64,000 nucleotides of DNA, from NCBI GenBank assembly GCA_044343545.1, contig JAWBZR010000001.1, positions 33,092-97,091 of the forward strand, written 5' to 3'. A model generated the notes under the pieces. It worked only from the letters and a program-made list of their open reading frames with translations. It had not been told where the DNA came from and ran no database searches. The translations under genes were made by a program, and so were the position numbers. The number at the start of each line of letters is the position of its first letter. Position 1 is the stretch's first letter. Origin of the DNA: Candidatus Aenigmatarchaeota archaeon (lineage in GTDB: Archaea > Aenigmatarchaeota > Aenigmatarchaeia > CG10238-14). Of the stretch, positions 3,451 to 59,272 are shown in pieces.

Positions 3451-3830
3451 TTAATTTTCCATTAAATTTATTTCATAAACCCAAGCTTCTACATTATTTG
3501 ATTTTGTATAAAAAATCTTTTTTAAAGCATGTTTTTCATTAATATTAGATTCTATATTTGCTTTATGAGTGATGCAAATATATTTTTTGTTGGGATCTAA
3601 ACTAGAAATTTGATTATACTCAAGCATAGAACCAGTGTTTTTATCTATATCCAAAAAATGACTTGAATATAACAAAACGAGAATGAAAATAATTAAATAT
3701 GTTTTGCAGATGTTGTGAAATAAATAAATAAGAAAGGATAAAGAACCAATGTATATTTATCATCAACTATATGATAATGAAGAATAAAAAGGCTGGTAAA
3801 AAACAAAAATTTTTGTTATCTTTTCGAATT
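3451..3830 (-). pseudogene. Degraded remnant of a membrane (GT-C-like) protein
   Basis: Minus-strand fragments FLFFTSLFILHYHIVDDKYTLVLYPFLFIYF* and, in another frame, KTYLIIFILVLLYSSHF...AWVYEINLMEN*; no clean start; lies in an otherwise unexplained ~590-bp gap. Confidence 0.4.
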
Positions 3831-34925: not shown

Positions 34926-35205
34926 GGCAAGGAGCTAGATCGGGGTGCTACCGGTACCCTGTAACCGCAAACCCGGTATACGGCGGGATCGAAGCCTGAG
35001 GGCGACTTGACACTGGTAACAAGACCTGGATCTTGGACGATGAAGCTTTGTCTCCCGGGACAGTGCATATACTGAACCTGGTCAGGTCCGGAAGGAAGCA
35101 GCCATAAAGTATATGCTCCTGTGCTCGCGAGTTAACAAAGTGGAGGACAAGTTCCAGAAAACTCTTGTTATCAGTGTCATTTCCACCGATGGCGTGCTCC
35201 TTGCC
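34926..35205 (+). ncRNA. ffs: Signal recognition particle RNA (~280 nt)
   Basis: Terminal helix GGCAAGGAGC/GCTCCTTGCC; Alu domain with CTGTAAC; helix 8 GTCAGGTCCGGAAGGAAGCAGC. Confidence 0.95.
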
Positions 35206-48753: not shown

Positions 48754-49113
48754 TTACTTACCACCCGACTTTATTGCATTAGTGATTTCCATTAACAATT
48801 CTCTTGCCTCGCCAGGCTCTATTATGCAAACAGAAGCGGCCGAGACGTTTATGCCTGCTGCCCTTCCCAATTCTTCTTTAGATGGCACAAAAATATATGG
48901 GCATTTTTTCTCGTTGCATAATACTGGCAAGTGCATAGTAATTTCTTTTGGATTAACGTCTTCGGCTATGATAACTAGTTTTGCTTGCGATTTCTCTATA
49001 GCTTTCGTGACTTCATTAGTGCCTTTCTTGATCTTACCTGTATTTCTTGCGATCTCTATTGCTTGAAGTGTTTTACTAACTAAATCTTTATTTGCCAACA
49101 CTTTCACCTCCAT
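48754..49113 (-). CDS. rpl7ae: 50S ribosomal protein L7Ae (eL8), K-turn binding
   Basis: [30 protein letters not shown]. Confidence 0.96.
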
Positions 49114-56945: not shown

Positions 56946-57968
56946 TTAAAATCTTATGACACCTTTTTTATCTATTCTTTCAAGTATTTTCTCGTTTTGT
57001 TCTTCTATTTTTTTCAAACTCCACTCCCACACATCTTCGTCTCTTGCCATTATTACAACTCGGCTTACATCATCTACTGCTTTAATTACATATCCTGTAT
57101 TTGCCGCAATTTTTCTTGCAAAATCTTCCAATTCTTGCATTGACGGCATATTCTCTTTTTTCAACCTCTGTTTTGATTCACCCAAATGCGAATAACCCTT
57201 TAATTCAGCAAAATGTGGCTGTGCCATTTTTATCAACTTCGAATAACCATCAGGGTCTTTCATATTCAAATCCTTCACCATTGTCATTCTAAAAACTGTC
57301 CTTGCTTTTCTGAATTCTTTCATTAGCTTTAAGCTTTCGTTAACCCTTTCCCATTCGTCTGGGATGAAAGAATTCGTGACAAACTTATAATCTTCTTTAT
57401 TAGTTGCATAAACACTTACATAGAGGTTTGTTGGTTCGCTATCCTTTTCTATTAATTCTCCAAGGCGTTGCGGCATCGTGCCGTTAGTAACAAGAAACGC
57501 TGTCATGCCTCTCGTCTTTATCTCCTTTATTAATTCAGATATGTAAGGATAAAGAGTTGGCTCGCCGTCTAAACTTATGGCTACATGTGCAGGTTTTTTT
57601 GCTTCTTCCCATAAATGCTTAGGTGTCAAGGGATTGCCGCCAAACCCCGATAAAAGCTCTATCTGTGCATCTATTATTTTATCGACAATTTCCTTTGGCG
57701 AATCCCATTCTGTGTTACCTTTAAATCTGTCAGGACCGAACGTGCGCCAACAAAATTTGCATGAAAAAGGACAGAAGTCGATAGTTGGCGTCATCTGTAT
57801 GCAACGATGAGATTTTATTCCATAAACGGCCTTGTAACAATTTCTTTTCCCTCTTAGTACAGATTTTGTCCATCTGCAAATTTCTACTGCAGAATGTTTG
57901 TGAGCACCTACTATTCTATAGCCGGCTTTTCTGTATTTTTTTATTCTCTCTTCTGTTAATTTTATCAT
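56946..57968 (-). CDS. taw1: Radical SAM 4-demethylwyosine synthase
   Basis: HSAV.IC.W, CYK..YGI.SHRC.QMTP, CxxxCxxCWR, SL.GEPT, ELKGY. Confidence 0.95.
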   Translation of the reverse strand: MIKLTEERIKKYRKAGYRIVGAHKHSAVEICRWTKSVLRGKRNCYKAVYGIKSHRCIQMTPTIDFCPFSCKFCWRTFGPDRFKGNTEWDSPKEIVDKIIDAQIELLSGFGGNPLTPKHLWEEAKKPAHVAISLDGEPTLYPYISELIKEIKTRGMTAFLVTNGTMPQRLGELIEKDSEPTNLYVSVYATNKEDYKFVTNSFIPDEWERVNESLKLMKEFRKARTVFRMTMVKDLNMKDPDGYSKLIKMAQPHFAELKGYSHLGESKQRLKKENMPSMQELEDFARKIAANTGYVIKAVDDVSRVVIMARDEDVWEWSLKKIEEQNEKILERIDKKGVIRF

Positions 57969-58026
57969 GAGTGTTATTTAAGAAAAAGAAATTTAAAGGG
58001 TTTTTTATTTATAAATTAAGAAAGAT

Positions 58027-58174
58027 GCTGAGGTGGCAGAACCAGGTAATGCACCGGACTTGAGTCGGTTTCCGATGTGGAAGATGGCTTGACCCTGAGA
58101 TGTGATGTCAAGGAGGTGAACCGAAGGAAATCCGGCGGGCTTTGCCCTTCAGGGTTCAAATCCCTGCCTCAGCG
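58027..58174 (+). tRNA. tRNA-Ser(TGA) with a 65-nt intron at 37/38 (58065-58129)
   Basis: GCTGAGG/CCTCAGC acceptor stem; CCGGA-CT-TGA-G...A-TCCGG; long variable arm GGGCTTTGCCC; discriminator G. Confidence 0.93.
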
Positions 58175-58312
58175 CTTAAATATCAGAAACATGCAAAACA
58201 CTCATAATAGCAAGATATTTTTCTCTTCAAACTTATCAATTAACATTAAAAACTTCGACTAAAATGCTTTGAATGAACTTATTTATATTTATTTTACAAT
58301 GATATAACCTTA

Positions 58313-59272
58313 ATGGCAAAGAAGAATTTACAAGAAAGTAAACAGAAAGAAAAGCCAAATTTATGGATGTATTCTACGATTTTTTTATTTATCATAACAT
58401 TAGTATTGCTATATATCAATTTTTTCCCCATGAATAATCAAGAGATAGGCCAAAAAACTATAAATTATATAAACGAAAATCTCGTTCAAGGTTCTAACAA
58501 GGCTTCGTTAGTTAGTGTGGAAATGGAATCTGGCATGTATAAAATCACTACATCTTATCAAGGACAAAACATACCCGTTTACGTAAGTAAAGATGGAAGG
58601 TATCTCTTTTTGACCCAACCCCTTGACATGACAATAAATATACCTAAAGAAGAAACGAGCGCTACTTTCGATGCACCTGATAGCGAAAAGCCACAAGTTG
58701 ATCTATATGTCATGTCTTTTTGTCCGTTTGGCATTCAGGCAGAAAATGCGATGAAACCGGTTTTTGATTTGCTTAATCAAAAAGCGAACTTTAGAATAAT
58801 TTTCATTGCAAATGTCAACGGAGATGATTACAAATCCGTTGATTCTTTACATGGCATTAATGAAGCGATGGAAGACCTTAGACAAATTTGCGTGATGAAA
58901 CATTATGATCAAAAAACATTTTGGAAATATTTAATGGAGATAAATGCAAATTGTTATAGCATTTATAGAGATGAAAAGGCTCTAGATAGTTGTTGGAGAA
59001 ACGCGACAAAGAAAATTGGCATAGATGATAAGAAAATAGATGAGTGCTCAAAAAGTAAGGAGGCTTTAGAAATTTTAAAGCAACATGAAGCTCTTGTGAA
59101 TCAAAATAAAGTGAGAGGTTCACCGACATTAATAATAAATGGAAAGGTATATAATGGAGAAAGAAGTCCTGAAGCTTTTAAGCAGGCGATTTGCTCTGGT
59201 TTCACAAAACCTCCTTCAGAATGTTCTCAAAAACTGGAAGTGAACACAACCTCGGTCAAAGGGTCTTGCTAA
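58313..59272 (+). CDS. Membrane-anchored DsbA/thioredoxin-like protein
   Basis: N-terminal TM; DsbC-like YVSKDGRYLF; MSFCPFG; SLHG..E; cis-Pro GSPT. Confidence 0.75.
   Translation: MAKKNLQESKQKEKPNLWMYSTIFLFIITLVLLYINFFPMNNQEIGQKTINYINENLVQGSNKASLVSVEMESGMYKITTSYQGQNIPVYVSKDGRYLFLTQPLDMTINIPKEETSATFDAPDSEKPQVDLYVMSFCPFGIQAENAMKPVFDLLNQKANFRIIFIANVNGDDYKSVDSLHGINEAMEDLRQICVMKHYDQKTFWKYLMEINANCYSIYRDEKALDSCWRNATKKIGIDDKKIDECSKSKEALEILKQHEALVNQNKVRGSPTLIINGKVYNGERSPEAFKQAICSGFTKPPSECSQKLEVNTTSVKGSC

Follow-up and report, generated by a model that had tools for sequence, protein, structure and literature searches.

The intron-encoded box C/D snoRNAs of eukaryotes, which guide the methylation of rRNA, are hosted by spliceosomal introns, and their maturation proceeds through debranching and exonucleases. 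The intron of the euryarchaeal pre-tRNA-Trp is said, from the work of Clouet d'Orval in 2001, to guide the methylation of its own tRNA in cis, at C34 and U39. Among archaeal tRNA introns, C/D RNAs have been described for tRNA-Trp (PMC7994747) and, tentatively, for the tRNA-Met of N. equitans (PMC3491384, section 9). The same archaeon has an RNA called sRNA13 or sR13, which lies at 318915-318968 and is represented by 45,100 RNA-seq reads (PMC3491384, supplement 2). PLEXY gave it a target for the D' guide only, 16S-1373 CGUCAm-AGCC (PMC3491384), which Dennis et al. equate with E. coli A1408 (PMC4644070); its D guide is entered as "NP" (PMC4644070, supplement 1).

We analysed a stretch of 64,000 nucleotides (the window) from a Candidatus Aenigmatarchaeota archaeon, whose assembly, called G000 below, has 651 kb in 22 contigs, about 33% GC and a completeness of 90%. 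A preliminary description of the window had singled out the intron of a tRNA-Ser gene as resembling a C/D-box RNA and as complementary to the 3' end of 16S rRNA. In our view the intron of this tRNA-Ser(UGA) gene is probably a box C/D guide RNA that would be released when the tRNA is spliced. By sequence comparison it is an rRNA-directed, intron-borne homologue of sR13, with a predicted and previously unreported guide against the anti-Shine-Dalgarno (anti-SD) tail and with variable intron hosts.

The likeness with sR13 (Randau 2012, PMC3491384; Dennis 2015, PMC4644070) extends to the order of the boxes and to both guide cores (GGCUUGAC before D' and GGAGGUGA before D), and the D' target is the A1408 equivalent of 16S rRNA in both cases. 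On the other side, sR13 is a free-standing gene with consensus boxes and spacers of 13 and 12 nt, and its predicted site in the tail is A1534, not C1535, whereas the copy in the window is hosted by a tRNA intron, has degenerate C and D boxes and a C-D' spacer of 16 nt. The D guide of sR13 forms 10 bp, at positions 2-11, with N. equitans' own 16S tail AUCACCUCCU. Among the sRNAs of the seven species in supplement 1 of PMC4644070, inspected by eye, sR13 is the only one which has AGGAGGUGA in guide position. The preliminary description knew of no such element in a tRNA-Ser. This has to be divided in two: the RNA family is known, through the homologue sR13 (PMC3491384), while the literature searched gave no earlier account of its seat in a tRNA-Ser intron or of its anti-SD target.

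With the euryarchaeal pre-tRNA-Trp guide, the intron of the window shares a bulge-helix-bulge (BHB) structure at 37/38, C/D boxes and the need to switch between a splice fold and a guide fold; unlike that guide, it has its predicted targets in 16S rRNA, and neither of its guides has its best tRNA complement in the host tRNA. Like the 66-nt intron of the N. equitans elongator tRNA-Met, it is a DPANN tRNA intron with C/D features; the N. equitans intron accumulates as a stable RNA, sits in another host tRNA, and has no rRNA target in the account that PMC3491384 gives of it. Eukaryotic intronic snoRNAs resemble it as intron-hosted rRNA guides freed by the processing of the host transcript, but they are not BHB introns and are not cut by the tRNA splicing endonuclease. 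In a search of the open-access literature, nothing relevant came up on guides against the anti-SD sequence, on DPANN introns that carry C/D RNAs or on rRNA introns of Aenigmarchaeota.

The tRNA-Ser(UGA) gene and the boxes of its intron

The features discussed below are collected in Table 1. The Rfam tRNA model RF00005 matches the gene at 58027-58174 with 44.1 bits (E=4e-6) and a 68-nt insertion in the anticodon loop. ARAGORN misses the gene in its default run (no intron option) and, when introns are allowed, reports tRNA-Ser(tga) i(37,65), that is to say an intron of 65 nt. The tRNA is of class II, with a discriminator G and a long variable arm, and the intron occupies the canonical 37/38 site. 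We parsed the splice-site structure by hand: the anticodon stem is 58054-58058 / 58131-58135, the central helix consists of C59-G127, U60.G126, U61-A125 and the mismatch G62.A124, with 3-nt bulges AG/U and AA/A (the stroke marks the splice site), and the intron-side helix is 58066-58070 / 58119-58123. The structure at 37/38 has two 3-nt bulges that hold the splice sites on either side of this helix; it reproduces the intron 58065-58129 exactly and leaves CUUGAGA as the mature loop. In 20 of 22 homologues, nucleotides 32-35 pair at 3-4 of the 4 positions with the four intron nucleotides that precede the last two. The minimum free energy (MFE) structure of RNAfold has a 3x3 internal loop at the splice site, not the BHB, and the fold energy of 58052-58137 is unremarkable (z = -0.48); neither this z nor the shape of the MFE structure is informative for a guide RNA.

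Table 1. Features of the tRNA-Ser(UGA) locus and an expected protein partner (positions in the window)
Feature	Position	Strand	Basis
tRNA-Ser(UGA) gene, intron included	58027..58174	+	Rfam RF00005 and ARAGORN -i
Exon 1, last nucleotide G37 of anticodon loop CUUGAG	58027..58064	+	Hand parse; boundary fits 22 homologues
65-nt BHB intron, putative box C/D sRNA, homologue of N. equitans sR13	58065..58129	+	ARAGORN, alignment, C/D regular expression
Exon 2	58130..58174	+	Rfam, ARAGORN, splice-site comparison
BHB 5' half: central-helix strand C32-G35 (58059-58062), bulge A63 G64/U65 with 5' splice site	58059..58065	+	Hand parse
BHB 3' half: central-helix strand AAGG (58124-58127), bulge A128 A129/A130 with 3' splice site	58124..58130	+	Hand parse
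Box C, degenerate CCGAUGU, GAUG core kept	58072..58078	+	(C/U)CGAUG(U/A) conserved in family f1
C-D' spacer, 16 nt; guide 1 core 58083-58093, GAUGGCUUGAC; U58090 is the 5th nucleotide upstream of D'	58079..58094	+	Complementarity and alignment
Box D', CUGA	58095..58098	+	CUGA in nearly all homologues; AUGA in L007 and L058; CCGA in L023 and L158
Box C', GUGAUGU	58102..58108	+	RUGAUG(A/G/U) in most homologues; variants e.g. AUGAUUA, GUGAAGA
C'-D spacer, 12 nt; guide 2 core 58110-58119, AAGGAGGUGA; G58116 is the 5th nucleotide upstream of D	58109..58120	+	Complementarity and alignment
Box D, degenerate CCGA	58121..58124	+	C(C/U)GA in family f1; CUGA in L009 and L018; UUGA in family f2
L7Ae-family gene, 121-aa open frame, expected k-turn-binding partner	48796..49071	-	PF01248, 101.3 bits; G000:C1:81887-82162(-)

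Several other RNA genes were seen on the way. The tRNA-Ser(UGA) genes L015-L018 (genera g8 and g9) have, by hand parse, a second intron of about 20 nt in the 5' strand of the anticodon stem, beside the guide-RNA intron, and ARAGORN misreads them as tRNA-Ile. In G000, two genes with odd intron positions in ARAGORN have a discriminator A by eye: C19:223-319(-), reported as tRNA-Ser(tga), is better read as a tRNA-Leu(UAA) with a canonical 12-nt intron, and C13:2319-2435(+), reported as tRNA-Ser(cga), has CUGA-UAGA-AUGAUG in its intron. The window itself also contains an archaeal SRP RNA (34928-35203, plus strand, 139.7 bits) and three intron-less tRNAs (Phe 21351, Ala 32234 and Pro 63322).

A string search recovered all the motifs of the preliminary description at their places: TCGGTT at 58065, CCGATGT at 58072, CTTGAC at 58088, CTGA at 58095, GTGATGT at 58102, GTCAAG at 58107, AAGGAGGTGAACC at 58110, AACCGA at 58119 and CCGA at 58121. 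The boxes follow each other in the order C, spacer, D', loop, C', spacer, D, and the intron 58065-58129 was also picked up by a separate C/D regular expression, with both guides matching 16S rRNA. The internal D'/C' motif has a loop of 3 nt and is conserved in the homologues. About 12 nt are expected of each spacer: the C'-D spacer has 12 nt, and the C-D' spacer has 16 nt in the window and 13-16 nt across homologues. Boxes C and D deviate from RUGAUGA and CUGA at two positions, the GA dinucleotides and the G-C pair being kept. Over the whole of G000, the C/D regular expression gave 11 matches, while its reversed control gave 1. Four of the 11 are complementary to rRNA over 9 nt or more and have boxes that are degenerate in a similar way; other candidates use NCGAUGA as box C and UUGA as box D. 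Since such boxes are normal in G000, the degenerate boxes of the intron need not disqualify it. None of the Rfam C/D models came near its threshold at the intron (the best was snoPyro_CD, with 13.2 bits against a gathering score of 45, E=3.3), but these models are lineage-specific, so that the sub-threshold match carries little weight. Weak snoRNA-like matches of Rfam on the minus strand, at 58142-58213 (E 1.6-7.8), were treated as chance.

The two stems of the preliminary description are both present at the positions given for them, and they fared differently. The TCGGTT/AACCGA stem, which had been taken to close the intron, is in fact the intron-side helix of the splice-site BHB. In the precursor, box D and two nucleotides ahead of box C are paired within this helix. 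Because the stem and the D box use the same CCGA, the closing stem and the k-turn would be alternative states, and the assembly of the guide would need a refolding, either after splicing or in competition with it. The CTTGAC/GTCAAG stem is conserved only in a few genera (two); in copies of family f2, by eye, GACU pairs with AGUC next to D'/C' instead. No ATG follows the SD-like segment within the intron, just as had been remarked, and on this ground a reading of AAGGAGGTGA as a Shine-Dalgarno sequence with its ORF was rejected.

The preliminary description had asked for fibrillarin and Nop5, and both are encoded in G000: fibrillarin (PF01269, 281 bits) and Nop5 (PF01798, 218 bits) adjoin each other on contig C19, outside the window. 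Other C/D sRNA candidates outside the window lie at C22:15207-15262(-), C22:16536-16589(-) and C4:14281-14335(-); they have complements of 9-12 nt to the same-genus 23S or 16S rRNA, with GCGAUGA or UCGAUGA as box C and UUGA as box D. The tRNA-Trp and the elongator tRNA-Met of G000 (C2:19212-19331(-) and C16:15701-15820(+)) have 46-nt introns in which C/D-like boxes can be made out. Judged by eye, each intron could pair with the anticodon loop of its own tRNA, the Trp intron through UGGAGC and the Met intron through AUGAGC, and C34 would then face the 5th nucleotide upstream of a UUGA or AUGA D'-like box; the two introns resemble the cis guides known from tRNA-Trp and from the tRNA-Met of N. 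equitans.

As for transcripts, a sediment metatranscriptome (X8) holds a single contig of 210 nt, 57955-58164, which is unspliced and which may be DNA, as it begins before the likely promoter. Joints that span or circle the intron did not turn up. An apparent joint 58046-58149 in X2 was discarded, because it comes from another tRNA gene with 40 other letters between its sides. We count these data neither for nor against the release of the intron.

Predicted targets of the two guides in 16S rRNA

A search for SSU rRNA in G000 found no 16S gene, and the targets were therefore read from the 16S of relatives (same-genus G003). In these genes 5'-GUCAAGCCAUC-3' lies inside CACACCGCCCGUCAAGCCAUCCGAG, the 3' end is GCGGCUGGAUCACCUCCUUU, and the tail is the standard GGAUCACCUCCUU, as the preliminary description had assumed for this organism. 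Its count also stands: when 58110-58122 is reverse-complemented and set against GGATCACCTCCTT, 1 of 13 positions disagrees. Guide 2, which is the D guide (58110-58119), can pair without a gap over 10 bp with the same-genus 16S 3' tail UCACCUCCUU, at positions 2-11 upstream of D; the anti-SD complementarity is borne out by comparative data. For the other guide, GGAAGAUGGCUUGACC, which had been left unassigned, we found a target at 16S 1405-1415: guide 1 (the D' guide, 58083-58093) forms 11 contiguous bp, at positions 2-12, with the decoding-site strand GUCAAGCCAUC of the G003 16S. The best same-genus 23S complements are of 8 nt for guide 1 and 6 nt for guide 2. When the guides were shuffled and compared with the same-genus 16S and 23S, complements of at least 11 nt arose in 14 of 5000 cases for guide 1, and of at least 10 nt in 24 of 5000 cases for guide 2.

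Each duplex with the same-genus 16S comprises at least 9 bp, with a Watson-Crick pair at the fifth position, U-A for guide 1 and G-C for guide 2. U58090, the 5th nucleotide upstream of D', faces the first A of GUCAAG, which we take to be the equivalent of E. coli A1408. The nucleotide which faces G58116 presumably corresponds to C1535, with a tail ending at 1542. This is the site that the preliminary description had predicted from the D+5 rule, and in the tail of the relatives G58116 does face that C; methylation there remains a prediction from the sequence. In P. abyssi, the modification mapping of the 30S subunit lists a ribose methyl at neither of the two sites (PMC7005279, Table 3).

Guide 1 changes along with its target from lineage to lineage: the pairing is GAUGGC/GCCAUC in family f1, AUUGGC/GCCAAU in G039 and GGUGGC/GCCACC in N. 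equitans; in other genomes of families f2 and f5 the duplexes are of 8-9 bp only. The register of the D' guide is exact in every copy, with always 1 nt between GGCUUGAC and D'. On the side of the tail, GGAGGUG and box D are separated by 2 nt in every copy from Aenigmatarchaeota, by 3 nt in N. equitans and by 4 nt in the four copies labelled Undinarchaeota or Altiarchaeota. This means that the base predicted to be methylated shifts from C1535 to A1534 and to C1533, while the paired segment is the same.

We also looked for targets in cis. Among the 39 tRNAs of G000 the best complement is of 8 nt, in tRNA-Gln, and there is none in the host tRNA-Ser(UGA). A 12-nt genomic complement to guide 1 at C15:1107, on the strand opposite a 223-codon ORF, was judged to be due to chance. 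With crude start calls, SD-like 5-mers occur upstream of 73 of 478 long ORFs, whereas a control window has them in 16 of 478 cases, which indicates that the 16S tail is used for initiation in at least some genes and is functionally relevant here.

Outside DPANN, sR48 of Pyrobaculum calidifontis (row PCAsR48 in supplement 1 of PMC4644070) has GGCUUGAC before a box, and the A1408-equivalent site is also predicted in S. acidocaldarius (PMC4644070). From these two cases, the decoding-site guide may predate DPANN. The anti-SD guide was seen in DPANN copies only.

Conservation and host sites

A BLAST search with the whole gene covered 41 genomes, namely G000 and 40 relatives. In 19 genomes from three families, G000 among them, tRNA-Ser(UGA) has this intron (L003-L019, L022 and L023). 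Of these genes we aligned 17, leaving out L006 and L016, which are identical to L005 and L015. In this alignment across relatives, which the preliminary description had called for, all 17 sequences agree in guide 1 (UGGCUUGAC), in guide 2 (AAGGAGGUG) and in the GA of boxes D' and D; they differ in the D'/C' loop, at the 5' end of the intron and in the acceptor, anticodon and variable arms. Boxes C' and D' and the GA of C and D are kept in the relatives, and in L009 and L018 box D is the consensus CUGA. The C/D-box reading holds up against the comparative data. Four more genomes (L020, L021, L028 and L031) have a short intron in tRNA-Ser(UGA), of 22-33 nt and without guides. The short introns of L028 (G036), of L031 (G040) and of L020 and L021 (genus g2) contain CUGA...AAUGAAG-like remnants, which may be relics of a lost guide RNA.

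We then used a search pattern made of both guide cores and of the remnants of the boxes, with the reversed pattern as control. It matches 60 of the 117 genomes of the order (once in 58 and twice in 2), and 25 of the 34 genomes with a completeness of at least 90%; the reversed pattern matches 0 of 117. The same kind of pattern, run on one genome per prokaryote species, gave 117 loci, which were sorted by their flanking sequence, some being reassigned by hand. Introns of tRNA-Ser(UGA) account for 26 loci. Another 30 lie within 16S genes, on the sense strand, 14 of them after GGUAGCCGUA in helix 45 and 16 upstream of GGUAGCCGUA in the linker between h44 and h45. Five are free-standing with consensus boxes (1 in N. 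equitans, 2 labelled Undinarchaeota and 2 labelled Altiarchaeota). The 56 others, mostly in GC-rich bacteria, were rejected as chance matches, of which about 100 are expected for this loose pattern by our own estimate.

In the 16S hosts, by eye, the flanks restore the uninterrupted helix 45 of the relatives, and the insert is enclosed by a helix of GCCG and CGGC that has 3-nt bulges; hence the guide RNA sits there between its own two targets. There are three 16S host sites, and at two of the three the splice junctions are located less exactly than to a single nucleotide. Both types of host, tRNA-Ser and 16S, occur within family f2 and again within family f5 (as judged from identical matched strings). 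G036 and G040 have a 16S-hosted copy, and their tRNA-Ser(UGA) has only the short guide-less intron. In five of the 16S-intron copies, UUAA or UAAA replaces the GA-containing D box. Introns nearly identical to that of the window are found in public records labelled Candidatus Aenigmatarchaeota. Sequencing runs with at least half of the sampled words of window 57800-58400 are labelled hot springs metagenome (X2-X4, two studies), beside a possible source sample.

Other insertions in 16S genes came to light during this comparison. In G040 (L041, about 3455-3515) and in the same region of G038 (L038), there is a second small insertion after AAGUCGCCAC. It contains the motif AUGAUGA and a stem of CCAGAC with GUCUGG, and is perhaps a further mini-intron with boxes. 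In family f1, L044 (G008) and L046 (G020) have the guide RNA in tRNA-Ser, yet other insertions at the helix 45 site of 16S: the distance from the first target to the second (T1 to T2) is 865 nt in L044 and 286 nt in L046, against 135-137 nt when uninterrupted. The larger insertion is perhaps of protein-coding length, and no guide RNA was seen in it.

Possible functions of the intron

If the intron is indeed a guide RNA, the following course of events can be proposed. The splicing endonuclease would cut the BHB and free the 65-nt intron, which would probably be circularised. The intron would then switch from the splice-site helix to a C/D k-turn and assemble with L7Ae, Nop5 and fibrillarin. Guide 1 would pair with 16S 1405-1415 before helix 44 closes, and direct the 2'-O-methylation of the A1408 equivalent; guide 2 would pair with the tail at 1532-1541, and direct that of the C1535 equivalent, with which the anti-Shine-Dalgarno CCUCC begins. 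As the two sites flank helices 44-45, the simultaneous binding of both guides may help to fold the 3' minor domain. Several points weigh against the guide-RNA reading: boxes C and D are not of the consensus form, the best Rfam C/D match is below its threshold, the C-D' spacer exceeds the usual 12 nt or so, box D is engaged in a helix of the precursor, the duplexes of some relatives have 8-9 bp only, the targets come from the 16S of a same-genus genome, and the P. abyssi map shows a ribose methyl at neither site.

Could the conserved sequence of the intron serve only the splicing or the folding of the tRNA, its matches to 16S being coincidental? The ends of the intron do take part in the BHB, and the fold energy is unremarkable. 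But the same RNA exists outside tRNAs, in the 30 loci of the 16S introns and the 5 free genes, the two complementarities would arise by chance with a probability of about 0.003 x 0.005, and changes in guide 1 go with changes in its target. The copies outside tRNAs, the co-variation and the shuffle test already contradict this explanation, and we hardly believe in it at all. It is also very improbable, if a shade less so, that the excised intron is a decoy which titrates the tail of the mature 30S subunit and so tunes Shine-Dalgarno-dependent initiation, an alternative that the preliminary description had raised. The guide is a near-perfect Shine-Dalgarno sequence, and the enrichment of SD-like 5-mers upstream of long ORFs (with the crude start calls mentioned) goes in the same direction. 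A decoy, however, would need neither C/D boxes, nor a fixed register to box D, nor a decoding-site guide, all of which are conserved; the by-product of one tRNA gene is unlikely to match the number of ribosomes; and a copy in a 16S intron is produced in cis, one for each 16S, as one would expect of a role in biogenesis and not in regulation. The conserved boxes, the register and the second guide thus speak against the decoy, which we found to be without support.

A more serious alternative, though still an unlikely one, is that the RNA acts chiefly by pairing. Bound to the nascent 16S at the anti-SD tail and at the 5' strand of helix 44, it would mask the tail and delay the closure of the decoding site until release, and the D guide would methylate only incidentally or not at all. 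Several observations agree with this: the pairing with the tail is conserved, but from one phylum to the next box D lies at another distance from GGAGGUG (2, 3 or 4 nt, with C1535, A1534 or C1533 as the predicted base), the 30 loci in 16S introns lie between their own targets, which suits an action in cis on the precursor, and the five copies with UUAA or UAAA have no GA-containing D box. Dennis et al. also propose chaperone roles for double-guide sRNAs (PMC4644070). Against it stand the exact register of the D' guide in every copy, as expected if a specific methylation site matters, the location of both duplexes at positions 2-11 or 2-12, as in methylation-competent guides, and the retention of fibrillarin in a genome of 0.65 Mb. 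We must note that the roles in pairing and in methylation are not mutually exclusive.

One can go further, more tentatively than for the guide RNA itself, and imagine a box C/D RNP conserved in DPANN as an assembly clamp for the 3' minor domain of 16S. Carried in BHB introns, it would hold 1405-1415 and the tail 1532-1541 until late in the maturation of the 30S subunit; the tRNA-Ser intron would be a secondary home, reached by transfer from intron to intron, and the pairing, not the methyl group, would be what is selected. We regard this as possible, but on balance doubtful. The drift of the predicted base (C1533, A1534, C1535) would then mean that selection keeps the pairing and not the methyl group. 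With a 16S host, the guide would be made in cis, one per rRNA, between its targets, and removed by splicing. Bacterial assembly factors that bind the tail of 16S rRNA offer a parallel to such a clamp.

Returning to the probable box C/D guide released from tRNA-Ser(UGA), it would offer a function for an unusually long tRNA intron, and Ser would become the third tRNA host of intron-borne C/D RNAs in Archaea. This is apparently the first such tRNA intron with targets in rRNA and not in the host tRNA. The anti-Shine-Dalgarno tail is where 16S selects mRNAs; we found no description of a conserved guide against it in the literature searched, and the methylation or the masking of this tail could affect initiation or the maturation of the 3' end. 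The predictions can be put to a direct test in a cultivable system, with sR13 of N. equitans. The same RNA in the 16S introns of sister lineages is an archaeal parallel to the intron-encoded snoRNAs of eukaryotes, and the copies in tRNA-Ser, in 16S and in free-standing genes make a clear case of a guide RNA changing its host introns.
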